From a virus, in the UHGV virus genome UHGV-0096616: a stretch of DNA of 42,863 nt. One strand, written 5' to 3'. Shown here one piece after another: positions 1,832 to 35,930 of this stretch (positions are counted from its first letter, which is position 1; each line of letters opens with the position of its first letter). The position numbers and the translations under genes are program-made. The notes below the pieces were generated by a model. It saw nothing but the letters and a program-made list of their open reading frames with translations. It did no database searches and was not told where the DNA came from.

Positions 1832-1866
1832 ATAAAAAACCCTCTGTAGTAACAGAGGGTTTTGTT
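1832..1866. terminator. intrinsic terminator hairpin after yfgI (AACCCTCTGT-agta-ACAGAGGGTT then T-run), A-run on the other side
   Basis: Inverted repeat plus T-run read directly. Confidence 0.55.
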
Positions 1867-1886
1867 CATTCATAGTGCAGGGTTCA

Positions 1887-1903
1887 AATCATTCCCACTC
1901 AAT
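1887..1903 (+). repeat. attL core, AATCATTCCCACTCAAT
   Basis: Exact 17-bp copy of the sequence at 41234-41250. Confidence 0.7.
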
Positions 1904-2013
1904 TATTTACGGCATCCATAACCAATTGAGTGATAACATTTTTCCAAGACTTCATTTTTTTAGTACCGTTTTATATACCGTCACCGGAAATCAGTACCAT
2001 GAAAAATGCCATG

Positions 2014-2496
2014 CTATCTTGTCAGGGTGTCATACTGTTTTTCGCAGACTCTTCCGGCTTCGACTGCCCGGTCAGCATACTCTGCCAGTTGTCTGTTTCT
2101 CTCGAGAGATTTGCTGAGCACGTCGGCAAGCAAAACTCCGGTGTCTGCGGCTGACGACCCAGCGCCGACAATGGCGTTATAGTGCCTGAGCTGCTCACGG
2201 ATGGCAACGAGCTGTTGCTGCAACCGGCCAGCGCGAGCGGCAGCATCAAGAGCATCATTGCGCGCCTGGTCGATCCTCTGCTGCGCTTCACGTTCATTGA
2301 TCGATTTCTCCTGTTCGTAGTGCTGACGAACTCTCTCATCTTCGGTTTTGCGGTCTTCTTTCGCCTGTGCATACCCGGCGTCGTACTGACGACTGCCGTG
2401 TGCATTCCAGGCTACAACTCCTGATATGACCAGAACAGCAAACATCGCCATGATAACCAACTGTTTCCAGTATGCTTTTGCGAATGCCCAGATCAT
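2014..2496 (-). CDS. Rz-like i-spanin (160 aa; N-terminal TM helix, coiled-coil periplasmic domain)
   Basis: Immediately downstream of endolysin with ATGA start/stop overlap; TM plus coiled coil; contains an embedded lipoprotein ORF. Confidence 0.7.
2022..2258 (-). CDS. Rz1-like o-spanin lipoprotein embedded in the +1 frame of Rz
   Basis: ORF fully inside Rz in another frame; signal peptide [13 protein letters not shown] with lipobox; start could also be the upstream Met (to 2297). Confidence 0.55.
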   Translation of the reverse strand: MMLLMLPLALAGCSNSSLPSVSSSGTITPLSALGRQPQTPEFCLPTCSANLSRETDNWQSMLTGQSKPEESAKNSMTP

Positions 2497-3122
2497 GCCG
2501 CCAGCACCTTACTTGCAGTGATGTATCGCGCGCGCCGGTCATCAATGCCGTTCCGGCCACCATTGATAAGCAGAGTTACACGTGCAATATCTCCGGTATA
2601 CTTCATGCAGCCTTTGCTGGAGAAGAACCACGCCGCGCTACGAGCCGCGTATTCGTCCTGCGCCAGCAGTTCAGGACTCTCCAGCAGGTAAACCTTAAGA
2701 CCGTTTCCACAGTCACGATAGTTATTCAAACCGGTAATCTGGATAAGTCCGCGCCCACGGTAGTTCCAGCCATCGCCAGGAGCATTGTTACCCATGCGTT
2801 TGCTGTACACCAGATTTGCGATCGCACGCTGGCGCTCGAGTGGTAATGGCGGTTCACCAGCACGGCGACCCAGTGCGTTGGCTTGTCCCTGAGTGAGACG
2901 ACCAGCACGAACGAAGTTAGCCAGTCCGGTGACGCTGTAGTTGAAATTTTCCTGCAACCGGGTGAAGCCTCCAGACTCATGCCCGACCTGAGCAATAAAC
3001 ATTGCCTGATCTTCTGGTTTACTGATACCAAACTCTTTCATCGCAGAAGTTATATGCGAGAACCAGCGTGCGGCCAGCGCCTCGCTAATACCAGCAGCTC
3101 GCTGGAATTGTTTAATCTCCAT
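2493..3122 (-). CDS. Endolysin, glycoside hydrolase family 19 (chitinase-like) type
   Basis: Motifs VGHESGGF and [15 protein letters not shown]; start placed at internal ATG (MEIKQF) with GAGG RBS, not the longer track ORF. Confidence 0.85.
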
Positions 3123-3420
3123 GTTTAGACCTCGATACTTTGAAAATTTGAACGACGTTACCGCGCGTTTTAATAACCGCAGCGAGCATGACAGCGTTGA
3201 TAATGACCTCAGATAAATCCACAGCCATTGGCGTACGAAACCAGATTGCATAGGAGACACGAACCGGAATACTGGCCGCAGCAACAATCAGGAAATAAGC
3301 AAGCCACCCACCCCATCTTCGGTGTTGGGATCCGTTACGCCGGAATGTAACAACGCGAATTGCAATGCCAGTACAAATAACTGCATTGGTGATAAGCAAA
3401 AAAAGCTCATTAGTTACCAT
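3112..3420 (-). CDS. small membrane protein, holin/antiholin candidate (102 aa)
   Basis: 2-3 predicted TM helices; between the upstream holin-like gene and endolysin, overlapping both. Confidence 0.45.
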
Positions 3421-7149: not shown

Positions 7150-7257
7150 ACATCGCACTCCTCTTGTGCCATAGTAATCGGGCACTGGCAAAATCCAGTG
7201 CCGGGATTGGCGTCCCGGATTACTAAAAGGCGCATTCACCGCGCAAGCGGTTTTTTT
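7150..7257 (+). ncRNA. candidate small RNA / attenuating leader: two stem-loops plus intrinsic terminator (ACCGC-gcaa-GCGGT then T7)
   Basis: Hairpins at 7181-7202 and 7201-7218, terminator at 7238-7257, no ORF; sits between the promoter/operator and the Bro-N gene. Confidence 0.35.
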
Positions 7258-7414
7258 ATGCGTATAGCACGGCCACATTCGTATTATGGTGGGCTGTGTG
7301 GGGGCACCGAAAGGTGCGCCGGGTCCTTTTAGCCGGTTACGCCAACCCTGCACAGCTCACCACCAACCGATTGGCGTCGGTAGTGGTGATTAACCAGACT
7401 AAAAGGTAACCACT

Positions 7415-21502: not shown

Positions 21503-22495
21503 TTACACCACGCGGGCTTCTGTTTCCAGAAGCGCATCAGTTTCACGGATTGGTACACCACGGAATGAAGTCCACCACTCGCCTTCAGTCTCTTTTACGC
21601 TGATAGCCAGAGATGTTTTCTCCAGAGATTGCAGATCAAGAGCCTGGCCTACAGTGCGGTTCATGTAGAACACCGGGCGGCCCATGCCACGGTTTGGAAT
21701 GCGATGCAGTGCTTTAACCATCAACTTCGCAATATTTGCGGCAGAGGAAGGTTCTGAAAGATTGCTGACATCGATGTTTGCAATGCGAACAACATAACGC
21801 CAGTCACGCAGAGCAAGTCCGTTATCCCATTTATAATGGGTGCGATAGCCTTCGTACTTGCCGCCATTAGCATCTTCCAGTGTCACCTGGCCTTTATCTT
21901 CCATCTGGATGCCAGCCTTCTGCCCTTTCGGGAAGATGCCATGCACGGTGTTTTCGCCCCACACCACTAACCAGATTGAGGTGTTATCTGTACCCGTGCC
22001 ACCAGCATCAATGATGTTCTGAGCATTACCCGCAGACAGGCTGGAATAGCGGGAGGACAGTCCCATAAACTGCTGAGGGTTAACGCTGGAATCACCATAA
22101 AACAGCGTCTGCGCCATCTGCTGATTCATCGCTTCAATAAATGCGCGGTCTTCAGACAGGCGGAATTCGGCGGTATTGCCGTTCAGATCAGCCAGTGACT
22201 TATCGACTTCAGCATAGGTTTCCAGCATGCCCACGGAATCGGTTACCTGCACTGTGGTTGATTTGCTTGGCTGTACGCCATAGTTCAGCAAACGCCAGGT
22301 AGCTGAAGGTAAACCAGAACGAATGGTGGTTCGGTGTCCGGTAGGAAGGTTCCCTTCGACAAAAGGCATATCCTGAAGGATCGGGTTAGTTTGACTGAGA
22401 AGCTCGATAATCTTATCGACTTTCCCGTTTGGATCGACGCGCTTACCCCAGTCAGCCAGCGTTAGCGCAGTTAAGCCTTTAACAGCCATTGTCAT
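21503..22495 (-). CDS. major capsid protein (330 aa)
   Basis: Follows scaffold and portal; size and composition fit an HK97-fold coat protein. Confidence 0.7.
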   Translation of the reverse strand: MTMAVKGLTALTLADWGKRVDPNGKVDKIIELLSQTNPILQDMPFVEGNLPTGHRTTIRSGLPSATWRLLNYGVQPSKSTTVQVTDSVGMLETYAEVDKSLADLNGNTAEFRLSEDRAFIEAMNQQMAQTLFYGDSSVNPQQFMGLSSRYSSLSAGNAQNIIDAGGTGTDNTSIWLVVWGENTVHGIFPKGQKAGIQMEDKGQVTLEDANGGKYEGYRTHYKWDNGLALRDWRYVVRIANIDVSNLSEPSSAANIAKLMVKALHRIPNRGMGRPVFYMNRTVGQALDLQSLEKTSLAISVKETEGEWWTSFRGVPIRETDALLETEARVV

Positions 22496-22503
22496 TTCCT
22501 CTC

Positions 22504-23205
22504 TTATTTGCCATAGAGCACTTCGGCCGCACTACGCTGGCCTTCATTACCACCGGTGACCATGCCATCTTCAGACATCGCCTTTCCGATTTTCACGAAC
22601 GTTTTGACCAGATCAGGGTGATTACCCAGCCCGGTGGTGTTCAGATATTCTTTGAGTTCAGGTGTCCCGAACTGGTCAAGCGCACGCTGTGCGGCGCTAA
22701 GGTTAGAAATCAACTTGTCGCCACCGATTTCTTTGTCAGCTTTTACATCCGCAGCCCACTGCTCGGTTGTTTTCTGCCAGGCTTCTGCCTGGCGCTGCTG
22801 AACACCTGCCAGAATCTTCGGATAAGCATCAACCAGCTTTTGCGCTTGCTCGTTGGTCAGGTTAAGTTCTCGCGCCACCGGCTCGAATTCCTTCAACGCT
22901 TCTGTATCCAGCTCTACGCCTTCGGCAGCCTGAAACTCGTACTTCTCAGGCGCACCCTCTGGTTTATCGCCGTCCTTTTTTTCATCCTGCTTATCGCTTT
23001 CAGGCTTTTTGTCATCAGCAGGTTTATCGCCATCAGCAACAGGTTGCGGCTTATCACCTTCTTGTTGTGATGGATCACCAACTGGAGCAGGGTTATCACC
23101 TGCAGGCGCTGACGGTTCTGACGCAGCCGGAGCTGCTCCACCATCGACTGGTTGCTCATTGCAAAGACGGCGATACAGCAAACGCTCAAATAAATTCATG
23201 ATCAC
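22504..23205 (-). CDS. scaffolding protein (233 aa, acidic, Pro/Ala/Lys-rich)
   Basis: Low-complexity acidic helical protein between portal and capsid. Confidence 0.6.
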   Translation of the reverse strand: MIMNLFERLLYRRLCNEQPVDGGAAPAASEPSAPAGDNPAPVGDPSQQEGDKPQPVADGDKPADDKKPESDKQDEKKDGDKPEGAPEKYEFQAAEGVELDTEALKEFEPVARELNLTNEQAQKLVDAYPKILAGVQQRQAEAWQKTTEQWAADVKADKEIGGDKLISNLSAAQRALDQFGTPELKEYLNTTGLGNHPDLVKTFVKIGKAMSEDGMVTGGNEGQRSAAEVLYGK

Positions 23206-23498
23206 TCCTGTTCACTGGCCTCTTTGGCCATCTTCAAATACTGTTCAGGGCAATGCGCCATAACGCGCTGAAACAGTTCCAGCGCCAGATTGCGTTGCCC
23301 CTCATTAAATGCCATTGCCATAGCGTCCATCGGTGAGATAGCGGAAAACACACGGCCTTTCTCCAGCACCGACCAGACAACGCGACGCCCCTGTTCACTG
23401 CTCATGACAAAGCGAATGTCATCAATTTCACGCTGTGCCATGTCACGTTGCTTACGGGCGTTTTCTTCTTTCAGTTGATCATCTTCGTAATCTGTCAT
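23202..23498 (-). CDS. small hypothetical head-morphogenesis protein (98 aa)
   Basis: Translationally coupled between portal and scaffold. Confidence 0.4.
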   Translation of the reverse strand: MTDYEDDQLKEENARKQRDMAQREIDDIRFVMSSEQGRRVVWSVLEKGRVFSAISPMDAMAMAFNEGQRNLALELFQRVMAHCPEQYLKMAKEASEQE

Positions 23499-25174
23499 TG
23501 TGATTGCCCACCCTGACCACTAACTGCATTCGCCATAGCTGACAAAACACTCGGATCCGAAGTTTTAGCTTCGCTTAGCGTCTTGGCACCCTGTGCCGCC
23601 GCCATCCCCATCGCCATCATTTGTTGCTGCTGTTGTTGCTGTGCCCGTTGCTGGCGAGCCTGCTCAACCTGTTCCTGCGGAACAATGACGGTTGGAGACA
23701 CTCCGGACATATCAGCGAATGCATCGATCGCCTGATCAACGTTGAGTTTGTCGAGAGCTTCTGGTTTCGCTTGCGCAAGTTGACCAATGAAGTTAACCGT
23801 GGACGCCAGACTGGACAGGCCGATAGACTTCTGCGCCTGAGCCATGACGGAAATGTATTCGACCTTCAGGGGCATACCTTCCATCGCGTGAGGCGGTGGC
23901 GGCAGCATGTTTTTACGCACCATCATCGAGAAAGCGCGGTCAATGAGAGGGTTAAGACATTCGTCGTTCAGACGCTCCAGAACCGGCCCCAACATCAGAA
24001 GTTTTTCTTCTTTCATTTCGATCACCGCTTCAACAGGCATCGAGCGGGTATTGATGTTCTGCAACATCATGAACAGATCGACAAAGTAGGCGCTGTTAAT
24101 GATTTGACGAGTGTCCTGAATGTCTGCCACCAAATCTGCTGTACTGGGGTTAACCAGATAAGCAGGCCTGAAGCCATCCTGACCAGTAATCTGATCGATA
24201 TACGTGATGTCGCCAGGAAGAAGGGAGGCGCGCTGATTCTTGAGGGAAGTCGGAGCAACCATCGGCGGATTGGTGGCTTTATCAATCAACTGCGACTTGC
24301 GCTTCTGGAGAAGCTGCAATGCCTTAACAGGTCCAAGCGCCAGCATACCCGGGCATGATGATCCATAAACATCTTCGCCGTTAACTTCCCAGCGCGGAGC
24401 CATAATTGGAAACTCATCGAATCCGGACTCACGCAACAACTTGTCGTTATCGCCACCAACCTCGTAATAAACCGATTTGAATGGCTTGTTCTTGCTATCC
24501 AGCTTCGATGTATCGCGGTCAATGTTCGGGTAAACCGAATGCATCACTTCAATCCACTTCTCGTAGGTGCCGCTTTCCCACATGCTTTTTACGGATTCGC
24601 TGACGTTATTTAGCCCGAACTCCTGAACAAGCTGACGAACAGTCATAGAGAACTTGCGAAAACAGGTGTCCACACTGCCACGAGGTGAGTTAGCCAGGTA
24701 GTAACTGCCTATCGGGAATGGCATTGTGCGAATGATGTCCTCGTCATCCTCCAGCACCGCCATTGCACCAGTGCTGTATGTGCCGAGGCTTCCGTATAAC
24801 TGCGGCAGCGACTGATAGAGATTCGACTTATTGAACATATCGTTCATGCGGTTCTGCACCGCCTCAAGCCACAACTTAACAGGGCCATAATCCATCATTT
24901 CAGGATCTGGCGTAGCCAGGCGAAACCACGGACGCGCGGGGCTTGTGATGCCTGACATCATGCCGCTGGCGAGAGTGCGCGCCGCCATAGTCCCGGTCGA
25001 ATCAATAATGCGTGTATTGCGTCGATCGTTACGGTTGACCTCAGAAGTCAGAAAGCGGGAACCACGTGGGTTGATGTAATCACTCAACTCGCGCCAGTGC
25101 GGCTCGAACGACTGACGCTCGCTTTCAAGTTGTGCGAACTGTTTGTTCAATCGCTCTTTAGTTGTTTCCGCCAT
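23495..25174 (-). CDS. portal (head-to-tail connector) protein, 559 aa
   Basis: Size, position after terminase, Q-rich C-terminal tail. Confidence 0.75.
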   Translation of the reverse strand: MAETTKERLNKQFAQLESERQSFEPHWRELSDYINPRGSRFLTSEVNRNDRRNTRIIDSTGTMAARTLASGMMSGITSPARPWFRLATPDPEMMDYGPVKLWLEAVQNRMNDMFNKSNLYQSLPQLYGSLGTYSTGAMAVLEDDEDIIRTMPFPIGSYYLANSPRGSVDTCFRKFSMTVRQLVQEFGLNNVSESVKSMWESGTYEKWIEVMHSVYPNIDRDTSKLDSKNKPFKSVYYEVGGDNDKLLRESGFDEFPIMAPRWEVNGEDVYGSSCPGMLALGPVKALQLLQKRKSQLIDKATNPPMVAPTSLKNQRASLLPGDITYIDQITGQDGFRPAYLVNPSTADLVADIQDTRQIINSAYFVDLFMMLQNINTRSMPVEAVIEMKEEKLLMLGPVLERLNDECLNPLIDRAFSMMVRKNMLPPPPHAMEGMPLKVEYISVMAQAQKSIGLSSLASTVNFIGQLAQAKPEALDKLNVDQAIDAFADMSGVSPTVIVPQEQVEQARQQRAQQQQQQQMMAMGMAAAQGAKTLSEAKTSDPSVLSAMANAVSGQGGQSQ

Positions 25175-25188
25175 TTCAATGACTCCGG

Positions 25189-25395
25189 TTACTGACCAAG
25201 CAGCGTTTTACCGCCGGTCTTAGCGGTTGATGTGTCGCCCTGAGAACCGGTAAGCAGCGTAGAACTACGACCAGCAGCAGCGCGACGGCGACGAGTTTCT
25301 TCGTCGCGGGCATCAACAACGGCGGCATCCTGCTCCTGTGGTGCTGCCTGAACTTCTGGTGTTGCAGGCACTGATGGTGAGCTACCCATGCACAT
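25189..25395 (-). CDS. small acidic hypothetical protein (68 aa)
   Basis: GGAG RBS; upstream of portal; an alternative overlapping frame exists. Confidence 0.3.
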   Translation of the reverse strand: MCMGSSPSVPATPEVQAAPQEQDAAVVDARDEETRRRRAAAGRSSTLLTGSQGDTSTAKTGGKTLLGQ

Positions 25396-25484
25396 ATCAA
25401 TGACTCCGTACGCAATTAAATTATTACCAATTTAACCACATATGATTTATTTATCGTAGATAGTTGACATTTAACGCACAAATT

Positions 25485-25501
25485 ATTACCTTTCAGGTAA
25501 C
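25485..25501. promoter_or_regulatory. palindrome ATTACCTTTCAGGTAAC (site 4) with -35 TTGACA at 25464-25469
   Basis: Dyad 17 bp downstream of a consensus -35; faces the noncoding leader and tRNA. Confidence 0.5.
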
Positions 25502-25822
25502 CAAAGAGTTCATTCCGGTTACTAACCTGACTGGCTTGTCGTTAAATTGAACAGGTGGAGTGAGCTTTTATTTTGAGCAGTACGGCGTATGGCACATGCG
25601 CCGATAGCGGTCTGGATACGTTTAAGGGGCACCCTCCCTTGCTCGGGCAAACGAACCAGGTAGCCGGAATGTGCAAGTCGAGCGGTTTTATTCCGCGCAC
25701 GGGGATTCACCATCCCGGCGATTCGGTGTGACGCCTCGGAAGAGACGAGGGTACAACGATGAGAGCATTTATGGAGCCGCGACAAAGTGTGGTGCCTTAA
25801 CAGGCTAAGTGCTCTCAGCGTT

Positions 25823-25899
25823 GTGGCATTAGCTCAGTTGGACAGACCAACCGCCTTCTAAGCGGTTGGTCGCAGGTTCGAATCCTGCATGCCACGCCA
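25823..25899 (+). tRNA. tRNA-Arg (anticodon UCU)
   Basis: Cloverleaf read by hand: acceptor stem GTGGCAT/ATGCCAC, T-arm GCAGG-TTCGAAT-CCTGC, anticodon loop CTTCTAA, 3-prime GCCA; one D-stem mismatch. Confidence 0.85.
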
Positions 25900-26062
25900 G
25901 AATCACGCCTAAGGACCGTGATGCCAGAAGTTCCAGGTGCTTGGCGGTGATGGTTTCCCTTGAAGGACTATCACCGCCCTTTTTACAGCAGGACGCCATT
26001 GCGATGACTTCATGCTGTAAACCAGTACAGCCACGGAAGGCATAACTCATTGCTTCCAGTTC

Positions 26063-26086
26063 GCCCGGTTCGCCGGGCATTTTTTT
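26063..26086 (+). terminator. intrinsic terminator (GCCCGG-ttcg-CCGGGC then A-TTTTTTT)
   Basis: Perfect hairpin plus T7 run after the tRNA. Confidence 0.7.
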
Positions 26087-26101
26087 GCTTGATGACCGCA
26101 A

Positions 26102-26118
26102 ATTACCTTAAAGGTATA
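26102..26118. promoter_or_regulatory. palindrome ATTACCTTAAAGGTATA (site 5) inside a promoter (-35 ATGACC 26092-26097, -10 TATAAT 26115-26120)
   Basis: Dyad between -35 and -10 with 17-bp spacing. Confidence 0.5.
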
Positions 26119-26145
26119 ATCATGAAAAACTTCAAGGTAATTAGC

Positions 26146-26940
26146 ATGTTTGAATCGTTTAAAGAGCTGTTTTTATCTACTGCCAATACTGCCGTGAATA
26201 GAGCCAAAAACCCTGTGCTTGGTGCTTTTGTTATGTCCTGGTGCGCCTTCAACTGGAAATCAATTCTTTATCTATTTTTTAGCAAATCAAACATAATAGA
26301 TAAAATTTCATATATCTCAGATAACAGCACATGGAAAACTGTTATGTTTTATCCATGCTTATCTGTAATTGCTATCTGCTGCCTATTACCATGGGTAAAC
26401 AATATCATTAACGTATGGCAAGCAAAGCCTCTTGATAATAATGACTCAATCGAAAATCACCTGAAGGCAAGAAAAATCCAGCGTGAAACAAGACTGCAGA
26501 GGTTATTGGCTAAAAAAGATGTTACATACGACAAAGTTAAGACTGGCGCGGAAAAAGACATCCAAGAGATGAAAGAAGAGATTATTCGATCAAAGAATAG
26601 TATGGGGGAATTGACTGCCGAGTTGAAAGCTAAAGATGACGAATTGAGATCCGCCAGTGCTCAGTTAGCAGCTCTAAATCATTCATTAAAAGAGATATCG
26701 GAAACTCTTGGAAGAATGAATGAGGCATATAATACCCTCCAAAATGATTTCGACGAATACAAACTCAAATACCCTGAAAAATCTCAAATAAAAAGCCTTG
26801 CACTTGGCAACGGCCAAACAATTAGCAACTTTTTGGAGCAACACAACTTATCCGGATTAAAATCTGGTAAGCCAAACGTTTTTAATAACTTTGGTGTTCT
26901 ATCTGGATTATCAGGTTTCGAGGATAAAAATAAAGACTAA
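26146..26940 (+). CDS. AT-rich accessory (moron) membrane protein with long C-terminal coiled coil (~264 aa); candidate superinfection-exclusion/abortive-infection factor
   Basis: Two predicted TM helices then coiled coil; visibly low GC; opposite strand to the late operon; own promoter and terminator; start set at ATG 26146 (AAGG RBS) because the track start at 26122 abuts the -10. Confidence 0.5.
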   Translation: MFESFKELFLSTANTAVNRAKNPVLGAFVMSWCAFNWKSILYLFFSKSNIIDKISYISDNSTWKTVMFYPCLSVIAICCLLPWVNNIINVWQAKPLDNNDSIENHLKARKIQRETRLQRLLAKKDVTYDKVKTGAEKDIQEMKEEIIRSKNSMGELTAELKAKDDELRSASAQLAALNHSLKEISETLGRMNEAYNTLQNDFDEYKLKYPEKSQIKSLALGNGQTISNFLEQHNLSGLKSGKPNVFNNFGVLSGLSGFEDKNKD

Positions 26941-28412
26941 GCATATGGATCGTACTCGGTAAGCGCCTTGCCTTGCTGGTTCTGCTGCCCGGGAAGTCGC
27001 AGGCGCTTTGACACCGGGAAAGCAAACGTCAGCAGTAGCGCATCGCCTTTACCCGGCGAACGCCCAAGCCGCTCCTTGATATCTTCCTTCGGTTCGATAA
27101 CGATTTTACCGTCCACTCGAACTTTGTACTCTGCCGCCGACAGGTCGTCCGCTGTTTCCTGGTCATCCAGCATGCCGCCCAGCCTCAGCCATGTCTTGCA
27201 TGCATTGAACATCTCCCCACGCTTGTTAAGCATCTGCGGGTCAGTGGACGCACCGCCGAACGGAACAAGTTGCCATGTACGTCCCCAGCCATCACCGATT
27301 GACTTCAAACCGGTTCCGTAACCGAAGTCGATGAACACCGCGTCAGCCTGGTACTGGTCTTCAAAGTCAGCGATACGCTTCGCCATAATCAGATCGTCGG
27401 TGGTCTTGTTGCCAGTCCACAACACCTTACTGTGCAGCCCCTGCCGCAGGTATATCACAGCGTCATCAACGCCGGAGTATGCAGGGTCAACGCCGATTAT
27501 CACCGGAGCATGTGCCACCTGCGCAGCAGTTACCACCCGTTTCATTGCCTCGTCAGTAAGACCGGTAGGGATAAACTGCAATTCAGATGCATCAGGGAAT
27601 ATGCCGCGCACACGGATTTTAACGAAGTCGCTGTCTTCCCCGTAGTCATCAACCCATTTCTGCAACTGCTGTTTGTTGGTGCCTTCCACCGTCCGGCTGT
27701 CAATCTGCGCAGTTTTCCAGCGGTGTTTATATTTGCGGAAACATTCGCGGAAACGCCCGGTATTACGCGTCGGGTTCCCGAACGCCACCCAGATGATTTC
27801 GGTGTCTTCGTCCGTCAGCGCACCCTCTGCTACCTCCCACACCAGATCGGCAATGTTGGATGCTTCGTCGAAAACCACGATGATGCGTTTGCGCTCGTTG
27901 TGTAGTCCGGCGAATGCCTCAGTGTTGTGCTCAGACCAGGGGATTGCGTCAGCTCGCCACCGCTTGTCGTGCCCAGGATCATTGCTGTACATCGCGGTAG
28001 CGGTACAGGTAAACCAGTCTTTCGTGATGGCAAGGTTCGACCACTTGATAATTTCCGGCCAGGTCTTCGTTCGTAGCTGGTTGTCGGTGTTGGCGGTCAC
28101 CACGACCTTACAATCCTCGCAAGTGGACATGCCCCAGTTGATCAGCATTGAGATGAATGCGGATTTACCAATACCGTGACCAGAAGCGCGTGCCAGCATA
28201 AGCGGCTGATATCGCGTCTCTGGATTCTGCAGGTGATCACGTATCTCTCGGAACGCATCGGCCTGCCACTGACGTGGACCGGTGGCATGTGCCAGTTCAG
28301 TACCCTCTTCCCCCCACGGGAACGCATAGAGGGCATAGCCAAGCGGATCGTGAGTGAACCCTGCAATATCCTCGATCAACTGCTCTTCAGGAGATAACGC
28401 TGTATCTGTCAC
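26937..28412 (-). CDS. terL: terminase large subunit (491 aa)
   Basis: Walker A-like ASGHGIGKS in the N-terminal ATPase, acidic nuclease-type C-terminal half, position after terS. Confidence 0.85.
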   Translation of the reverse strand: MTDTALSPEEQLIEDIAGFTHDPLGYALYAFPWGEEGTELAHATGPRQWQADAFREIRDHLQNPETRYQPLMLARASGHGIGKSAFISMLINWGMSTCEDCKVVVTANTDNQLRTKTWPEIIKWSNLAITKDWFTCTATAMYSNDPGHDKRWRADAIPWSEHNTEAFAGLHNERKRIIVVFDEASNIADLVWEVAEGALTDEDTEIIWVAFGNPTRNTGRFRECFRKYKHRWKTAQIDSRTVEGTNKQQLQKWVDDYGEDSDFVKIRVRGIFPDASELQFIPTGLTDEAMKRVVTAAQVAHAPVIIGVDPAYSGVDDAVIYLRQGLHSKVLWTGNKTTDDLIMAKRIADFEDQYQADAVFIDFGYGTGLKSIGDGWGRTWQLVPFGGASTDPQMLNKRGEMFNACKTWLRLGGMLDDQETADDLSAAEYKVRVDGKIVIEPKEDIKERLGRSPGKGDALLLTFAFPVSKRLRLPGQQNQQGKALTEYDPYA

Positions 28413-29005
28413 TGATTACCATCCTGACGTTCTTTGAGTCGCTTCCTGGCTGCTGCTATGCGATCAGCAATTGTCACATTCACATTAACATCCAGACGTT
28501 CTTTGAACGCGTTGACATCAACATGCTTACCAATCAGTTCTAGGTTCTTCACCTTGTCAGGCCATTTAATTTTTTTGAGGATTGTCTCTATCGAATCCTC
28601 GTTCATGTTCATGATGGTCGATGACAGATCAAAGCCACTAAGCGTAGTGCGCCAGATTTTCGGCCACTCACGGATTGGTTTAAGGCTCCCATCGTCGTTG
28701 AGGATATCGATCACGTCCATCTGGTCGATCTCCACCAAGCGCATGAGAACGTAATCAGCACTGACGCGCATTCGTTTGTTGCGCTCCTCCATCAACTCGG
28801 CAATCCGTTTTTGAATGCGTTCATCGCGCATCATGACACTGGCTTTAACTGCCGCTGTATTTGGGGAGAATCCTGCGTTAATCGCAGCCTGAGTCTGGTT
28901 TTCAGGCGTTTTGATGTATGACTGGCAATAAGCCTCCTGCATTGCTGTGAGCGGCTTAAATTGCGTTGATTTGCGTTTATAGGTTTTAGGTTCAGCAGGC
29001 ATCAT
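28409..29005 (-). CDS. terS: terminase small subunit (about 198 aa)
   Basis: Overlaps the terL start; start moved to MMPAEP because the longer track N-terminus is translated from operator-like repeats. Confidence 0.6.
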   Translation of the reverse strand: MMPAEPKTYKRKSTQFKPLTAMQEAYCQSYIKTPENQTQAAINAGFSPNTAAVKASVMMRDERIQKRIAELMEERNKRMRVSADYVLMRLVEIDQMDVIDILNDDGSLKPIREWPKIWRTTLSGFDLSSTIMNMNEDSIETILKKIKWPDKVKNLELIGKHVDVNAFKERLDVNVNVTIADRIAAARKRLKERQDGNQ

Positions 29006-29021
29006 AACCACCGTGGTAATA

Positions 29022-29038
29022 GTTACCGTTGTGGTAAT
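29022..29038. promoter_or_regulatory. palindrome GTTACCGTTGTGGTAAT (site 6) at the start of the late operon
   Basis: TTACC-N5-GGTAA dyad 17 bp upstream of the terS start, with extra GGTAAT half-sites nearby. Confidence 0.45.
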
Positions 29039-29044
29039 AGTACC

Positions 29045-29074
29045 ATGCAAAATAAAGCCGCCATAGTTGGCGGC
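29045..29074 (-). terminator. intrinsic terminator on the - strand upstream of terS (GCCGCC-aactat-GGCGGC then TTTATTTTG)
   Basis: Hairpin plus U-rich tract. Confidence 0.5.
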
Positions 29075-29123
29075 AGTATTCAAAACCCGTCAAATTCATC
29101 ATGCATAATCTACTCGTGACATG

Positions 29124-29471
29124 TCACACTATTAATTTCGTTTCATGCCAGCCTTTAGTCACCCAGCATTGCGAGTCACCATTACACGGGCATGAATTAA
29201 CTGGAACTCTCTCGCCGCACTTACCGCAACGTTTTCTGCTGATCGATTTTATACGCCCGCGCACACGTGCATCATCCTGGCGGATCAGCAGCGCGATGTA
29301 CTCGGCCATTTCATAGGGATCGCGACCAGGGCGCCGGGCGGCGCAGTTCCGCGCTAGCATTTCCTGCTCCTGCTTATCCAGCACCAGTTCAATTTTGCGC
29401 TCACCGGCGGCGGACTGCCGAGCGCGCTGCGCGGCTTTGCGTTCTGCGGGGGATTTAGCCACGAATCGCAC
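29124..29471 (-). CDS. hypothetical basic protein with C-terminal Cys-rich zinc-ribbon-like motif (115 aa); possible late-gene regulator
   Basis: Motif CGKCG...CPC; last gene before the late-operon control region. Confidence 0.4.
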   Translation of the reverse strand: MRFVAKSPAERKAAQRARQSAAGERKIELVLDKQEQEMLARNCAARRPGRDPYEMAEYIALLIRQDDARVRGRIKSISRKRCGKCGERVPVNSCPCNGDSQCWVTKGWHETKLIV

Positions 29472-29576
29472 TCCACGCCAGATTGATTAATGACTCCCAG
29501 GTAATATAAACCCGGATACCAGCAGCCAGGCCGAAACCAATCACCATGGCATAAAGCAGAGCGTTGCACTTGTTCA

Positions 29577-30368
29577 TCACTTCACCTCCTGCGGCGGTTC
29601 TGGTAGAGGCATCCAGTGGGTTACACCGCCAATTGGCTCATCGTCGTACTCCAATGCGGCTATATAGAACCCGTCACGACGAGAATAAGAAATCCCGGAC
29701 ATTACAATGCCATCCGAAACAACAATAATGTCACCCGTTTCTTTCGGCATTCGCTCACTACAGCTTATCCAACCATCCGGAGTCACCGGAAGCGAGAACG
29801 GCAGCACATCTCTGTGAACAAGTTTTTGCTGTGACAGGTTATCCAGAACTTTCTGTACTGCTGCATCACCGAATACACCAAGCGCATCTGCCATAACTCC
29901 TACAACCTGATAAGCCTCAGCGCATACCGTGGATAAACCATCCGGAATTACCGGAGAGTTGCCGGGTTCTTTAATGTGCAAGCGAGGCTCACCATCTTTT
30001 GGTTCAGGCCACTGGCGCTCCATGTTGATCTTCAATTTATCTTCCATAGCAGCGGTAATTTCAGCATCGCTGATGCCAGCACGGCGCTGTGCATCCCACA
30101 ACAGAAACTGCATATCAGCCCACTCGCTAAGATCGTCTGGTTCGGCTGCGGCTTCCAGTGCCTCTTTTGAGAGGTGTTTCAGTGGACCAATGGGGCCAAC
30201 GCAGCCAAATGTGGAGTCAGACCATTTGGCATGCTCGTGGCGAATCTGTTCGCGTTCCAGTGATGCCAGTGCAATTCGTGCCAGTTCCACTTGTTCGCCA
30301 CGAGTAAGCCCGTTTTCAAGCGGATTTTTAATGAATAATTCGATACGTTCTTTGGTAATAGTGGTCAT
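29577..30368 (-). CDS. hypothetical prophage protein (263 aa), possible DUF551-type C-terminal domain
   Basis: C-terminal HWMPLPEPP-like motif as recalled for DUF551. Confidence 0.4.
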   Translation of the reverse strand: MTTITKERIELFIKNPLENGLTRGEQVELARIALASLEREQIRHEHAKWSDSTFGCVGPIGPLKHLSKEALEAAAEPDDLSEWADMQFLLWDAQRRAGISDAEITAAMEDKLKINMERQWPEPKDGEPRLHIKEPGNSPVIPDGLSTVCAEAYQVVGVMADALGVFGDAAVQKVLDNLSQQKLVHRDVLPFSLPVTPDGWISCSERMPKETGDIIVVSDGIVMSGISYSRRDGFYIAALEYDDEPIGGVTHWMPLPEPPQEVK

Positions 30369-30574
30369 GTGTTAATCCTCAAAACTTTATGCCCGGGCGC
30401 AAAAGTACGTGTTTTGTCTTTGCTTATTCGCCACCCGTCTTTACGGGCCTCTTTTGCACAGCCAGCCCATGACGTACCGATATACTCACCGAAGTCTGGC
30501 ACTGGATATACACCTTCCGTACACTGGCGGCAGTCACAATAGAGATGCATGGTGTAACTTGCGGCAATAGACAT
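30365..30574 (-). CDS. small Cys-rich hypothetical protein (~69 aa)
   Basis: ATG with AAGGA RBS; the longer track ORF has no RBS. Confidence 0.3.
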   Translation of the reverse strand: MSIAASYTMHLYCDCRQCTEGVYPVPDFGEYIGTSWAGCAKEARKDGWRISKDKTRTFAPGHKVLRINT

Positions 30575-30763
30575 ATCAGGATCCTTTAGTGCGCAAGTGT
30601 TTTTTCCAGCGGTTTTGCGCCGCGCTGCGCTTCTCTTTGACTCCCTCTCTGGCAATTCCAGAATATAAGTACAACACCACACGGCGATTGCTAACTCTCA
30701 ACCACTGGCTGGGATGGCAACGTCTGTATACACGGGAAATAAGCATCTTTGCTTTACGGTTTT

Positions 30764-31948
30764 TCATCGTTTTGCTCTCCTGCGTTTCTTTGCTGCTCGT
30801 CTCGCCGCTGCAATACCGGTATGGCGGCGCTTTGGTGCCGGGATGATGTTGTCAGCCATCAGGACATACGGCTTTGCAATTAGCGCAGAATCCCAAACGG
30901 CGCGGATTGCAGCGATGACTTCAGAAACTTTGTATGCCATTACCGTTTGGTAATCATCGTGAAAATCTGTTCGATGAAGCATGCTGCTACGTTCCGGGAG
31001 CGTTATTTCCCGAGCATCCAGTTCCTTAACGCGTTCCTCCAGTTCGTAGACCCTGCATTGCTCTCTATCATCAATCAGATATAACCCAAGACATTCGCTT
31101 TCTACCCAACCGCCAAAATCATGATCGTAACGCTCACATGAAAACTCACCGTCACCGTCCTTTGTTGGAATGGTGTAACTGTCTAATGGGCCACCGTACG
31201 TCGGCACATTTCCTAATGTCGGATGCTCAATCCACATAAAAAATGCACGTCCGGTTATTGGGCAAATATCTGGCCGCCATTGGTTACGAACAGCGTTGGT
31301 TTCTGATAATTCTTCAGCGTGTTGTTTTACTTCCTCAAGCTCAACACGCAGCTTCCCTACCGTAAGCGCAATATCCTCGTTCTCCTGGTCGCGGCGTTTG
31401 ATGTATTGCTGGTTTCTTTCCAGTTCATCCAGCAGCGCCTGCACTACTTCAGGGTTGAAAGCTGCGATATAACGAGCGTTGTTCTCTGCGTTGTTCTGTC
31501 CATCAAAGCCGGTCCATTTGATAACGTCTTCACATCGTTTATCACCAGGTGTATGCACCGCATATGTACCAGTACCAGACGAAATAAATGCGACCCATTC
31601 ACCCTGTGTTGCCAGTTGCGCCGCTTCACGCAATGCCTGATAGTCAATCTTGTTCACTGGTGTCTCCCTTGCAGGGCTTTCGAATGTATCAAACTCAAAC
31701 AACTTAACCACGTCATCAAACAGGACATAATCGCCATCAGGATCTTCAGTCATGTCAGCGCCACAATCCTGACCGAACGAGTCACAACCATCCATATCAA
31801 GCTCGTATCGCTTCAGGTTTGCGATATTTGATAAATTCAGCGCCAGTACAGCTAGGGCATAAACCTCGTCAGCGGTATACCCTGCACCATGTCCATACAT
31901 TTCAATACGGGATATGATTTCTTCTACACGTTGTTTTGTGATCGTCAT
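30764..31948 (-). CDS. Ead/Ea22-like early protein (394 aa)
   Basis: NARYIAAFNPEVVQALLDELERN segment recalled as typical of enterobacterial prophage Ea22-like proteins. Confidence 0.45.
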   Translation of the reverse strand: MTITKQRVEEIISRIEMYGHGAGYTADEVYALAVLALNLSNIANLKRYELDMDGCDSFGQDCGADMTEDPDGDYVLFDDVVKLFEFDTFESPARETPVNKIDYQALREAAQLATQGEWVAFISSGTGTYAVHTPGDKRCEDVIKWTGFDGQNNAENNARYIAAFNPEVVQALLDELERNQQYIKRRDQENEDIALTVGKLRVELEEVKQHAEELSETNAVRNQWRPDICPITGRAFFMWIEHPTLGNVPTYGGPLDSYTIPTKDGDGEFSCERYDHDFGGWVESECLGLYLIDDREQCRVYELEERVKELDAREITLPERSSMLHRTDFHDDYQTVMAYKVSEVIAAIRAVWDSALIAKPYVLMADNIIPAPKRRHTGIAAARRAAKKRRRAKR

Positions 31949-32427
31949 TTTTGCTCATCTCCCTGTTCTTCCAGAAAAATACGCATAGCCTCAAGCATCT
32001 TTTCGGTGTCATACGGAGACAGCTTGTCACGCAGGATGTGTTCAATGCTGTTAATGAACTTGCGGATTGCTTTGCGTTCAATTTCAGCCAGGAAGGCGTC
32101 GGTGGCTGGGGTTTCTGGTGCGTGCATAATTGCTACCAGCATTGCGTCATGCATACAGTCAATGTTGCAACAACCAACTGCTTCTGCTGTTTTAAATTCA
32201 CGATACATGTTGCTGAACGCATCAGTTTTGCACCATGCGTTTATATCCTTAAATGTCGCATTCTCCGCTGCCAGCGCATTAGCACGTACCAGTTGCACTT
32301 CCAGTTGCGTTGCCAAATCGCTGATCAGCTTTGCCACACTGCGCATATCAACGGCACCACATTCTGCTTTCAGTTCCGAAGCCATCTCATGCCCGGCGGC
32401 AACTAACCATTTGATATTACTTTCCAT
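31945..32427 (-). CDS. hypothetical early protein (160 aa)
   Basis: ORF in early operon, overlapping the upstream stop. Confidence 0.45.
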   Translation of the reverse strand: MESNIKWLVAAGHEMASELKAECGAVDMRSVAKLISDLATQLEVQLVRANALAAENATFKDINAWCKTDAFSNMYREFKTAEAVGCCNIDCMHDAMLVAIMHAPETPATDAFLAEIERKAIRKFINSIEHILRDKLSPYDTEKMLEAMRIFLEEQGDEQK

Positions 32428-32488
32428 CTTTACCCTCGCTTATCCACATAACTTATTGATAACATTGATAACTAAAAAGATCGTCGAT

Positions 32489-32833
32489 TCAGAACTCTTC
32501 GATGATCCAGCCACCACCTGCTTTCTTTGGTTTAACAGTTACCCCGATGATTCGGAACGGATACTGATCTGCGGCGACTTTGGTTTTCACCCTGGCGTCG
32601 TCGGTCCAGAAACCTTTCACTTCGTGCAGTTCCATCTCGCCGGTGGCGAGCATCACAGCAAAATCGGGCGTATAGAACGTGTTGTCAGCTAACCGCAGCT
32701 TGATACCCTCAAATCGATACCAGACGATTTCTCCTGCACGTTTACGCAGCTCAAGGTGCTGGCAATACGCAGATTCTGTTTTGTTCATCTGACCTGTTTT
32801 GAGTCGACCAAGAGCCTGTATCTGTTTTCTCAT
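32489..32833 (-). CDS. small PD-(D/E)XK-like nuclease (DUF1064-like, 114 aa)
   Basis: YTPDF...ELHEVKG arrangement (D...E-x-K); operator half-site doubles as RBS. Confidence 0.45.
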   Translation of the reverse strand: MRKQIQALGRLKTGQMNKTESAYCQHLELRKRAGEIVWYRFEGIKLRLADNTFYTPDFAVMLATGEMELHEVKGFWTDDARVKTKVAADQYPFRIIGVTVKPKKAGGGWIIEEF

Positions 32834-32835
32834 GA

Positions 32836-32852
32836 TTTACCTCTGAGGTAAT
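32836..32852. promoter_or_regulatory. palindrome TTTACCTCTGAGGTAAT (site 7)
   Basis: Dyad immediately upstream of the 32833 start. Confidence 0.5.
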
Positions 32853-32897
32853 TAAAAACCACATAAGACACGAAATCAATAGATTTTAGAATATTTT

Positions 32898-32914
32898 ATT
32901 ACCTAACAGGTAAT
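32898..32914. promoter_or_regulatory. palindrome ATTACCTAACAGGTAAT (site 8)
   Basis: Perfect dyad 62 bp from site 7 in the same intergenic region. Confidence 0.5.
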
Positions 32915-32950
32915 TGTTGAGGCGTAAAAAAATGCGCTATCGCGCTGGTA

Positions 32951-33751
32951 TTACTTGATAAATCCTGCCGCCTTTCCTCGCCTGTATTCCTCCATCAGCC
33001 ACTGCGCCGGTGTTATTCCACCAAGGGTGGCGGCGTTAGGCATGCACCCGAAACTTCGCCCTGGTGGATGGTAAACGTCTCTCCCTGTGTCCGGAGGTGT
33101 ACTCATGGGTTCTGGCTTTGCCTGTATGCTGATCACCGGATCGGGTATCTGCTGTCCGGAAGCCACCTTTTTCGCCCAATCATCGAGCAGCCTGCGCGCG
33201 TGTTTCTCAACCTCAATCTCGCTAAGCTGGCGCTGATACATTGCACGGCGGGTATCACATACGACCCAGTACATAACCGGATGTCGCCACGGGAATCTTT
33301 CGGGACCACCAGGATATAAACTTTTTTCCTTGCTGTACCGGTTAAACTCCGCCATCACATCGTCAATGGTGACGCCAAGAACCATCTTGCTGTCTTTACA
33401 CCACTTGATGAATTGCCCAGGCGACGGCCAGAACGGAGATTCACTGGCGCGGGCGTGGCGCATACCAGCAGAAACCTGTTCACGGGTTCGGATCCCCCCT
33501 TCGGCAAACGCAGCAATCCACTGCTGTTTTGCAGCGACTTCCTGCTCTGGCGTCTTCAGGTTGGTTACCACTGCCGCCGGAAACAGTTGTTTCAGCTGTT
33601 TGAAAAGGGCATCAACAAGCCTCTCTGCTGACATGTTCACCACATTGTCATTGTTGACGTACTGATGCTCATAACCTGACATGCGAGAAAGGGCTTCTCC
33701 GTCACGGTTTTGTATCGCGGTAAAAACGTTGTTCACAAGAAATCCTCCCAT
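32951..33751 (-). CDS. replication protein P-like (helicase loader), 266 aa
   Basis: Strong resemblance to lambda P as recalled: AGMRHARASESPFWPSPGQFIKWC vs lambda AGMRVARRQNRPFLPSPGQFVAWC, plus flanking conserved blocks. Confidence 0.7.
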   Translation of the reverse strand: MGGFLVNNVFTAIQNRDGEALSRMSGYEHQYVNNDNVVNMSAERLVDALFKQLKQLFPAAVVTNLKTPEQEVAAKQQWIAAFAEGGIRTREQVSAGMRHARASESPFWPSPGQFIKWCKDSKMVLGVTIDDVMAEFNRYSKEKSLYPGGPERFPWRHPVMYWVVCDTRRAMYQRQLSEIEVEKHARRLLDDWAKKVASGQQIPDPVISIQAKPEPMSTPPDTGRDVYHPPGRSFGCMPNAATLGGITPAQWLMEEYRRGKAAGFIK

Positions 33752-34548
33752 GCTTCAGGGCTGTTCCAGTGCGGAACGTTGTTATCAGGTAATGTTGATT
33801 GCTTCTGTCTGCTAATCTGCAGCCGCCTTGCCAGCTTCTGCTCCCACTGTGCCTGATGGTATGCCTTACCCTCAGCCATCCAGTAAATTCTGAACTCTGC
33901 AAGTTCCTGTGCCGTTGGCAGACTGTCCAGGTAGATCCCCTGCAATGAGCTTTTCCGAAGAAAGTCATCTGATGGCTGCCATTGTTCATGCATGACAAAT
34001 TTGCCTAATTGCCCTGGCCCACCAGGAGGAACAAAGTTATTCATCACGGCGTTGTTTGCGCCGGGGTCATGAGGCACAGAACCTCGGGTTTTTGTCCTGC
34101 TCTCCCTCTCTTGGTTAAATGACTGGTTATATGACTGGTTCTGGATCCCGTTTTTGGGATCATTCAACATCCCGTTTTTGGGATCATTCAACATCCCGTT
34201 TTTGGGTATATTCCCGTTTTCGGTAACATTACCGTTTTCGGGTTCATTGCCCCCCTCCCGGTTGCCTTTAATGTTCCCGTTTTTGGTTATATTAAGAGAG
34301 AAAACCCGCACTCTTTTTGTCGCTCCCTTTCTCTCTCCGGTATCTGAAATAAGCCCCATTTTCATGAGCGATATAAGCCCGGCCTGCACGGTTTTTTTAT
34401 TCAGGCAAGTGTCTTTAACGAGGCGTTCTATGCTGGGGTAGCAGAGGTTATATTCATCGGCTCTGTCAGCCATCGAGAGCAGTATGAGCTTTAATGATGA
34501 GCTACCTGGATCTGTCTCCCAGGCCCAATCTGTTGCATGTCTGCTCAT
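33733..34548 (-). CDS. replication initiator O-like protein (271 aa): N-terminal winged-helix, Asn/Gly-rich repeat linker, DnaT-like C-terminal domain
   Basis: Immediately upstream of the P-like gene; contains DNA iterons; domain architecture. Confidence 0.6.
   Translation of the reverse strand: MSRHATDWAWETDPGSSSLKLILLSMADRADEYNLCYPSIERLVKDTCLNKKTVQAGLISLMKMGLISDTGERKGATKRVRVFSLNITKNGNIKGNREGGNEPENGNVTENGNIPKNGMLNDPKNGMLNDPKNGIQNQSYNQSFNQERESRTKTRGSVPHDPGANNAVMNNFVPPGGPGQLGKFVMHEQWQPSDDFLRKSSLQGIYLDSLPTAQELAEFRIYWMAEGKAYHQAQWEQKLARRLQISRQKQSTLPDNNVPHWNSPEAWEDFL
34147..34300. repeat. iteron array, putative origin of replication (about 6 copies of CCCGTTTT(T/C)GG.., two identical 24-bp units)
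   Basis: Tandem repeats with internal dyad (ATCCCgtttttGGGAT) inside the O-like gene, as in lambda ori. Confidence 0.5.
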
Positions 34549-34563
34549 GATTAATCTCCGCTA

Positions 34564-34764
34564 TCAGCTTGAATGTTGTGGGGAGGAATTAATCATGATC
34601 TGCTTAATCTCTGCCCTGATACGACGGTTTGATTCCATGGTGCACTCAACACAGTGTCCGTTGTAAACCCAGCGTTCACTGTCATGTCCGTGCTTACATG
34701 TTTTTCCGGTGTAGTAGCGTTTAAGTCCGCGCTTTGCGGCATCAATACGTGTAATGATTTCCAT
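34564..34764 (-). CDS. small Cys/His-rich hypothetical protein (~66 aa), possible zinc-finger regulator
   Basis: CKHGH...HCVEC motif; between the cro-like and O-like genes; start uncertain. Confidence 0.3.
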   Translation of the reverse strand: MEIITRIDAAKRGLKRYYTGKTCKHGHDSERWVYNGHCVECTMESNRRIRAEIKQIMINSSPQHSS

Positions 34765-34843
34765 GGTAAGCCCTGTTATTAGTATTGGGATTACGGTCAT
34801 TTTGTGCTGACACAAAAAAAAGATCAACCATATTTGGTTTTTT

Positions 34844-34860
34844 ATTACCTTTGAGGTACG
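34844..34860. promoter_or_regulatory. palindrome ATTACCTTTGAGGTACG (site 9, one mismatch)
   Basis: Dyad between the cro-like gene and the next early gene. Confidence 0.4.
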
Positions 34861-34914
34861 AATAGATATGAAAAGACCGCCGGGTGGCGGTCTACAGAGG
34901 GTTGTAGCTGGATA

Positions 34915-35145
34915 TCATGAGTAGAAGAAGTATGCCAGTTCTGCTTTTGAGCGCAGCCATTGTCTTGTTTTACAGGCTTTAAAAAGCCCATTCATCAATA
35001 CTTTACCTGGCATTTTGCGCTTACCTGTTAAGTGAGTCTGGATATAGTGACTCGTCGTTCCGGCTTCCTGTGCGAAGGCTTCACGCTCATCCGGAGTAAG
35101 TGCAAGCCAGTGCTTTTTGAAATCGAAATGTCCGTTATCGCTCAT
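34915..35145 (-). CDS. Cro-like small HTH regulator (76 aa)
   Basis: Small basic HTH protein, first gene of the leftward early operon, divergent from the repressor. Confidence 0.5.
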   Translation of the reverse strand: MSDNGHFDFKKHWLALTPDEREAFAQEAGTTSHYIQTHLTGKRKMPGKVLMNGLFKACKTRQWLRSKAELAYFFYS

Positions 35146-35228
35146 AGCTATTGCCTGATATTTATTTCAGATAATAAATATTCACCCATAAGGTAACAAA
35201 AATCAAGGATAGTTACCCATGAGGTGCA

Positions 35229-35245
35229 TTTACCTGTTGGGTAAT
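35229..35245. promoter_or_regulatory. palindrome TTTACCTGTTGGGTAAT (site 10) in the repressor/cro divergent region, with extra GGTAAC/GTTACC half-sites at 35192-35218
   Basis: Dyad in the 154-bp intergenic switch region. Confidence 0.5.
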
Positions 35246-35299
35246 ATTGCTTTAAATTGAATCATCTACTGATTCATATATGAGGCGATTTTCCAGAAA

Positions 35300-35884
35300 A
35301 TGAAAAGTATCCAGGACGTCCGCAGGCAAAATCTCAACGACTTGATCGACCGTGAATTCAATGGTGTTCAGACGCGGATGGCTGAAAAACTTGGAACTCA
35401 GGCAAATCTGGTAAACCGCTGGGCTCTTGGTAAGAAGGTTATCGGCGATCAGGTTGCGCGAAAAATTGAAGCTGCCGCCAATAAACCCCGTAACTGGCTT
35501 GATATCGATCGCTCGCTTTCTCAGGAAGGTTTTCAGCCTGTCGGCCCAAGCGACATTGGCCAGCTGGCGGCTCACAACCTGGAACGCTGGATGAGCGAAA
35601 GCCGCGACCTTTCAACACAGGGAAAACTTCACCGCGCATCCGGCGTAGCCCAGGTGACAATCAGCCGCCTGTTAAACAATGAGGTCAGCGTTTCCATTTC
35701 CACCCTGGAGAATGTTGCATCCGCATTCGGGCGTCACGGCTATGAATTACTGATTCACCCGCACGACCCTGCGACCATCAACTATGATCGCTCGCGCTAC
35801 GCATTGTTACCCGAAACCGAGAAAGCAAAGATCGAAAGTTACATTGAATTTGTCATCAACCAGAACGAAAAAAACAAACAATAA
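35300..35884 (+). CDS. CI-like prophage repressor with two HTH domains and no S24 peptidase domain (194 aa)
   Basis: Two XRE-type HTH segments; divergent from cro-like operon; followed by a terminator. Confidence 0.6.
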   Translation: MKSIQDVRRQNLNDLIDREFNGVQTRMAEKLGTQANLVNRWALGKKVIGDQVARKIEAAANKPRNWLDIDRSLSQEGFQPVGPSDIGQLAAHNLERWMSESRDLSTQGKLHRASGVAQVTISRLLNNEVSVSISTLENVASAFGRHGYELLIHPHDPATINYDRSRYALLPETEKAKIESYIEFVINQNEKNKQ

Positions 35885-35904
35885 AACCATATTTTTCAGT
35901 AAGT

Positions 35905-35930
35905 AAGCCGCCTTATGGCGGCTTTTTTAT
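35905..35930 (+). terminator. intrinsic terminator (AAGCCGCC-ttat-GGCGGCTT then TTTTTAT)
   Basis: Hairpin plus T-run after the repressor stop. Confidence 0.7.

Follow-up and report, generated by a model that had tools for sequence, protein, structure and literature searches.

Attachment cores and terminator hairpins of an epsilon15/phiV10-type prophage at the 3' end of guaA

The yfgI-guaA locus and the 17-bp repeat that flanks the prophage

The window, by which we mean the whole 42,863-bp stretch of DNA analysed, holds a prophage between two host flanks. The left flank carries an ORF at 220-411 that we take, from its reading frame, to be yfgG, a Pfam-confirmed yfgH (722-1240) and, on the plus strand at 1256-1795, yfgI (DUF5384; Pfam PF17358, E = 4e-62), which is annotated under that name in matching E. 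coli genomes. Behind yfgI lies a predicted bidirectional terminator hairpin (1836-1863), followed by the first copy of a 17-bp repeat (1887-1903). Phage DNA then opens with a lysis cassette on the minus strand that includes a holin (3112-3420), an endolysin (within the ORF at 2493-3287) and, as its last gene reading towards attL, an Rz-like spanin (DUF2514, 2014-2496; Pfam PF10721, E = 2e-42; Rz-like in the phiV10 and epsilon15 records). The opposite end of the prophage carries a gene for a 416 aa tyrosine integrase (39793-41043, minus strand), a predicted intrinsic terminator (41156-41189, minus strand) and the second repeat copy (41234-41250), which overlaps the end of guaA (41236-42813, minus strand). 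The guaA ORF encodes the 525 aa GMP synthase with Pfam GATase and GMP_synt_C domains at full length, carries the same name in matching E. coli genomes and is intact after integration. The integrase gene is co-directional with guaA and starts 190 nt past the attR core.

The repeat, AATCATTCCCACTCAAT, is present in exactly two copies, and the window contains no further copy when up to two mismatches are allowed. In a shuffle control two matches were obtained in 0 of 100 shuffles. Because the bordering bases differ on both sides (A at 1886 versus T at 41233 and T at 1904 versus G at 41251), the identity is exactly 17 bp long, and the exact repeat that the initial annotation had described as flanking the prophage is confirmed, coordinates included. 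Both copies are the exact reverse complement of the published core attgagtgggaatgatt, and the left one, the attL copy, equals the published attP/attB core (PMC9782041). The right one, the attR copy, consists of four guaA codons (I-E-W-E), the TGA stop codon and two additional bases; the minus-strand guaA ORF ends within it, in agreement with the proposal that this copy supplies the last guaA codons.

Joining the two host flanks across a single core (1504-1903 to 41251-41650, 800 bp) rebuilds an empty site. Alignment of the flanks to an uninterrupted locus had been set beforehand as a check, and the construct is 100% identical over all 800 bp to uninterrupted yfgI-guaA loci of E. coli PSUO2, NGF1, LF82 and others. 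In the empty site yfgI and guaA are convergent, and 4568 of 5426 complete E. coli genomes carry the locus uninterrupted. The reciprocal construct, made by joining the phage arms (40834-41250 plus 1904-2303, 817 bp), is contiguous in phiV10 (98.3% identity), ZX5 (95.8%), SPN1S (87.6%) and epsilon15 (86%) as well as in the O157 typing phages 9 and 10. Other lysogens have the repeats as well: of the complete E. coli genomes, 522 carry the attL and 568 the attR junction (~10%). In IMG/VR, a pattern of P' arm plus core occurs on at least 120 contigs; at least 105 of them have at least 100 nt past the core, and at least 86 of these enter an E. coli-type host terminator and represent attL junctions.

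The flank of the window at 1740-1903, which contains the terminator behind yfgI, is a minority E. coli haplotype, 100% identical to LF82, NRG 857C and PSUO2 and 90-95% identical to most genomes. The exact attL junction of the window is absent from the complete genomes in the collection, where the best match reaches 97.2%. Host-flank haplotypes in IMG/VR probably reflect E. coli phylogroups; an assignment by genus failed.

A direct repeat could in principle also be the target-site duplication left by a transposase or a chance repeat. Beyond the presence of the repeat itself nothing favors such an origin, and several observations oppose it: free phage genomes already hold one core, located between Rz and int as predicted, empty host sites hold one copy, the neighboring gene encodes a tyrosine integrase and the shuffles yielded no chance repeat. 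The single core in free phages and in empty sites refutes both explanations, and we assign them a negligible probability. We are highly confident that the two repeat copies, at 1887-1903 (attL) and 41234-41250 (attR), are the attachment cores of an epsilon15/phiV10-type prophage inserted at the guaA-end attB and that the terminator hairpins have been exchanged.

Relatives of the prophage, its integrase and the structure of attP

The DNA bracketed by the two cores is 39.3 kb long and represents a full-length Uetakevirus (epsilon15/phiV10-type) prophage. Over 1904-22000, HEMP4 covers 88%, phiv142-3 87% and phiV10 81%, all at ~97% identity, and over 22001-41233 the coverage is 84% for phiv142-3, 75% for HEMP4 and 52% for phiV10. 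The closest relative overall is phiv142-3 with 84-87% of each half, and compared with phiV10 the window prophage is a different mosaic. Both phiV10 and ZX5 share with it the identical 17-bp core, the guaA 3' end as integration site and the gene order Rz, attP, terminator, int, in addition to the high attP identities given above. Epsilon15 (AY150271.2) has the same core, the same integrase family, the arm motif GTGACGGTAT and a terminator stem-loop annotated at the equivalent place, but its attP region is only 86% identical to that of the window and its host is Salmonella. The epsilon15 attachment data used here are those of the GenBank annotation and of papers citing the original work. The prophage also contains a tRNA-Arg gene (anticodon TCT) at 25823-25899 on the plus strand and, at 7182-7367 on the same strand, two Rfam matches side by side, isrK (77.9 bits) and C4 antisense RNA (79.2 bits), a pair that corresponds to a P1/P7-type antisense immunity module controlling an antirepressor.

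The attachment site of this phage group has been described before. The attP of phiV10, epsilon15 and ZX5 is attgagtgggaatgatt, and integration of ZX5 at the guaA 3' end was proven by PCR and Sanger sequencing (PMC9782041). In the literature covered, release of the circle with recovery of attB upon induction is an experimental result for ZX5 alone. The integrases of epsilon15, CMGI-3 and related elements form one cluster that targets the guaA 3' flank (PMC8138268). These two studies confirm the statement in the initial annotation that epsilon15-type phages use guaA as attB. The att site is thus already known, since its core is published for epsilon15, phiV10 and ZX5, and so is the phage terminator, since it is annotated in the epsilon15 and phiV10 GenBank records.

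The integrase has an N-terminal arm-binding domain (Arm-DNA-bind_3, PF13356), a central domain (Phage_int_M, PF22022) and a C-terminal catalytic domain (Phage_integrase, PF00589), all scoring above the cut-offs. It is 90% identical to epsilon15 Int over the aligned N-terminal 270 residues and 53% and 47% identical to integrases of guaA islands. The catalytic motifs VRKGE, HDMRRT, LAHE and VYNKAEY, identified by eye in the alignment for the box I Arg, H-x-x-R, His and Tyr of tyrosine recombinases, align with those of the island integrases. By sequence, the enzyme is assigned to the epsilon15 cluster of the P4-like/IntSXT subgroup.

Predicted arm-type sites are present on both sides of the core. 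The motif GGTGACGGTAT is found in the P' arm at 1975-1985 (minus strand), where it is invariant in six aligned attP regions, and again in the P arm at 41100-41110 (ATACCGTCACC), with an inverted copy at 41071-41079 (TGACGGTAT). The resulting inverted pair at 41071-41110, predicted from the repeats, is conserved in most of the six regions. The 10-mer GTGACGGTAT of this motif, found in both arms, carries the annotation of an integrase binding site in the epsilon15 record AY150271.2; over the region equivalent to 41071-41110 the record places an integrase site as well as a predicted RNase III site, and it also marks IHF sites and predicted RNase III sites. The aligned Uetakevirus attP regions come from phages that infect Escherichia, Salmonella, Enterobacter or Klebsiella. 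Invariant in all of them are GTAAATA with the first 16 core bases and the arm sites, as well as the block TATTCACTCTA and the stem of the terminator, AACCCTCTGT...ACAG(A/G)GGGTTTTT.

Both core halves have inverted partners in the adjoining phage DNA. In the P' arm, the right core half together with phage DNA (CACTCAATTATTTACGG) pairs with CCATAACCAATTGAGTG (1916-1932), forming a palindrome at 1896-1932 with a 17-nt inverted repeat that is 82% complementary and has a 3-nt gap. Its TCAATTG is present in five of the six aligned attP regions, the epsilon15 sequence being TCAATAA. In the P arm, an imperfect inverted core copy at 41201-41215, TGAATAGGAATGATT, pairs with AATCATTCCCACTCA of the core (span 41201-41248; 15 nt, 87% complementary, 18-nt gap). 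The attR core and this copy would form a 15-bp hairpin that spans the guaA stop codon just before the terminator and is included in the minus-strand fold of 41140-41260 (-38.5 kcal/mol). The inverted partners are partly conserved across the six Uetakevirus regions. Changes in the P-arm copy are a mix of pair-preserving and pair-breaking substitutions and the core itself is invariant, and the partners could represent a protein site or an RNA structure.

Two similar terminator hairpins at the attachment site

The phage hairpin was identified by terminator scan and folding. Its stem, AACCCTCTG/CAGAGGGTT, occupies 41166-41189 and the U-tract 41156-41165, a position within a few bases of the strong hairpin that the initial annotation had placed on the phage side of attR at 41160-41192. 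The structure has 10 pairs and a 4-nt loop followed by TTTGTTTTTA on the minus strand only, that is in the sense of guaA and int, and folds with -16.9 kcal/mol (z = -4.3). It starts 45 nt past the core and ~47 nt past the guaA stop codon. In the epsilon15 and phiV10 GenBank records this hairpin is annotated as a rho-independent terminator, and its stem shows no variation among 6 Uetakevirus genomes representing 4 host genera. Compared with phiV10, the terminator of the window carries one base change in the loop, which leaves the stem with 9 instead of 10 perfect pairs.

The host hairpin, recognized as an inverted repeat, has a 12-bp stem at 1836-1863, an AGTA loop and A/T tracts within about 1832-1869. 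It is flanked by an A-tract and, at the opposite end, by a T-tract, which gives T-tracts on both strands, and it folds on both (-22.8 kcal/mol on the plus and -18.2 kcal/mol on the minus strand, z ~ -6), consistent with the bidirectional host terminator proposed behind yfgI at 1832-1866. The consensus terminator scan did not report the hairpin at 1836-1863; as folding showed, its T-run had been taken up into the extended stem, so the omission is an artefact of the tool. Both hairpins combine a G+C-rich stem, a short loop, an adjacent U-tract and a stop codon upstream, the hallmarks of intrinsic terminators, and we infer that they terminate transcription in vivo.

Related forms of the host hairpin adjoin yfgI in Citrobacter portucalensis (GCCCTCT/AGAGGGC) and Salmonella bongori (AACCTCTG/CAGAGGTT), and by this comparison of sequences the hairpin is ancestral in the hosts. 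For the empty-site comparison S. bongori and C. portucalensis took the place of S. enterica; in the S. enterica strain reached via its YfgI homologue, yfgI and guaA are not adjacent. The native guaA terminator of S. bongori is an ACCCGC-type hairpin distinct from the one next to yfgI. In C. portucalensis the core matches at 15 of 17 positions because guaA ends in TAA rather than TGA, and this species may be a poorer target for guaA elements.

Phage and host hairpins match at 24 of 27 bases (AACCCTCTGTTACTACAGAGGGTTTTT and AACCCTCTGTTTTTGCAGAGGGTTTTT). Their local alignment score of 39 compares with 14.2 ± 2.2 in 2000 shuffles (maximum 28), so that the close resemblance noted initially is above chance. 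The 10-bp stem of phiV10, AACCCTCTGT/ACAGAGGGTT, does not differ from that of E. coli. The likeness may reflect common descent if an ancestral phage picked up a guaA/yfgI terminator of the Escherichia type, for instance through aberrant excision. The extent of the match in the window, the identical phiV10 stem, the ancestral state of the host hairpin with its related forms beside yfgI in Citrobacter and S. bongori, and the different stems of the remaining terminator-like hairpins of the window all favor such a capture. However, the spacers that separate core and hairpin resemble each other neither in sequence nor in length (25 nt in the host and 44 nt in the phage), a self-complementary hairpin offers only ~10 independent matching positions and convergence on a short G+C-rich stem is conceivable. 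We consider capture of an Escherichia-type terminator plausible, at somewhat less than even probability, and convergence also compatible with the sequences. An extended host-derived attP arm is not supported, as the spacers do not align beyond the hairpin. A distant search with the attB region against the phage collection returned only prophage records that include host flank and no phage with a longer host-derived segment.

Proposed terminator exchange and the guaA end as a shared target

Core and terminator follow the same order in both recombination partners. Along attB, guaA is followed by the core and the host hairpin; in the attP of phiV10 and epsilon15, endolysin, Rz, core, phage hairpin and int follow one another, all co-directional. 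Since attB and attP thus share layout and orientation (3' end of a transcription unit, core, terminator), recombination would swap the terminators, which is a reasonable mechanistic gloss. The P4-like tyrosine integrase most likely joined the phage attP with the 17-bp attB at the end of guaA, with strand exchange probably near GAGTGGGA by analogy with the homologous integrase of GIsul2 (PMC9376610). After integration guaA retains its last four codons and stop, with the phage terminator 45 nt further on. This terminator would shield int against read-through from the guaBA operon. At the other junction the lysis/late operon of the prophage would run into the host bidirectional terminator, which would go on serving yfgI. 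The initial annotation had proposed that the phage restores both the guaA C-terminus and its terminator: the codons and stop are indeed rebuilt and a phage hairpin lies behind guaA, whereas actual termination of guaA at this hairpin is what we infer.

P4-like integrases act at the 3' ends of tRNA genes, where the element carries the 3' end of its target so that the gene is rebuilt, and where the integrase gene adjoins attP. The guaA system resembles this arrangement in that the gene is rebuilt and int lies beside attP, but the target is protein-coding and only 4 codons and a stop are rebuilt.

The guaA end is widespread. Among the matches listed, with one genome per species, guaA ends in frame with the 17-mer ATTGAGTGGGAATGATT (...KPP(A/G)TIEWE and stop) in 106 of 120 species genomes, which span Proteobacteria, Clostridia, Cyanobacteria, Actinobacteria and archaea. 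Because this end is common to many phyla, many unrelated elements are found at the guaA site, including GIsul2 (PMC9376610) and PIMEs (bioRxiv 10.64898/2026.01.12.698999). A co-directional homologue of the window integrase, 42-83% identical and starting ~220-370 nt past the core, is present at 31 of the 106 guaA-end loci listed. GIsul2/PIME/CMGI-3-type islands occupy the same chromosomal site as the phage and share with it the order guaA, core, hairpin, int; the core proposed for them, GAGTGGGA, is part of the 17-mer, and they encode homologous integrases. In contrast to the phage, they are islands or mobilizable elements, the GCCCGC-type stems of their hairpins are not related to that of the phage, and their arms contain GTCTGGCA-like repeats. 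At least 10 gamma- and betaproteobacterial islands have a T-tract hairpin at +43 to +46 past the core, compared with +45 in the phage, and since they keep the layout guaA, core, hairpin, int at this distance, the role of the hairpin appears tied to the guaA junction. The alphaproteobacterial islands among the listed loci mostly have no canonical hairpin in the vicinity of the core, so integrases of this family need not be accompanied by a terminator.

Several families of elements can be told apart by the sequence directly past the guaA 17-mer: GTCTGGCA-repeat islands in gamma- and betaproteobacteria, CTATCGGTGGG in alphaproteobacteria and GTGGCAACGATTTGGCAACA in Clostridia. On at least 8 IMG/VR contigs the DNA directly past a Uetakevirus attL is the arm of a guaA island of the GTCTGGCA type, which brings its own GCCCGC terminator in place of that of the host, and these contigs therefore represent tandem occupancy of the guaA site by phage and island. 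Three alphaproteobacterial islands carry a long inverted repeat, TACCGTCA...TGACGGTA, just upstream of int and ~155-200 nt past the core. This repeat shares a motif with the phage arm-site pair at 41071-41110, which suggests that arm-binding specificity is conserved across the integrase cluster.

What the phage hairpin is selected for can be read in more than one way. In the free phage it lies between the lysis genes and int, where it has a phage job of its own, and it is consequently not purely a replacement part. It may thus be the terminator of the phage late operon and an insulator of int, with its place behind guaA an unselected effect of attP geometry. The co-directional order endolysin, Rz, core, terminator, int in phiV10 and epsilon15 agrees with this, as does the invariant stem in phages of Escherichia, Salmonella, Enterobacter and Klebsiella. 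Moreover, an Enterobacter MAG, Rahnella and Pantoea have native guaA terminators of another type than the phage hairpin; with a constant stem and differing native terminators, the hairpin is not tuned to each host. On the other hand, a late-operon role and a guaA role are compatible, and the unrelated-looking islands with the same integrase family have a hairpin between core and int at the same distance. As those islands have no phage late operon upstream, this again links the hairpin to the guaA junction. We regard a purely phage-internal function as possible but on balance doubtful, although the benefit to guaA may be a by-product.

A more far-reaching proposal is that a hairpin ~45 nt past the core constitutes a conserved attP module of guaA-targeting epsilon15-cluster phages and GIsul2/PIME-like islands, selected to replace the guaA terminator and to insulate int from the highly expressed guaBA, that the Uetakevirus version was captured from an Escherichia-type host, and that the inverted core copies (1916-1932 and 41201-41215) could form alternative hairpins affecting guaA mRNA 3'-end stability or integrase binding. 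Taken as a whole, this proposal is speculative and rather unlikely to hold in every part.

The window harbors a prophage that is common in E. coli, where roughly 10% of the complete genomes have it, and that sits at a site already described, and the value of the analysis lies mainly in its correct annotation. The codon-plus-terminator layout at guaA could guide how integration vectors targeted to guaA are designed. An element inserting behind a highly expressed housekeeping gene would bring along the missing codons and a terminator, so that the transcription units of host and element stay separate.
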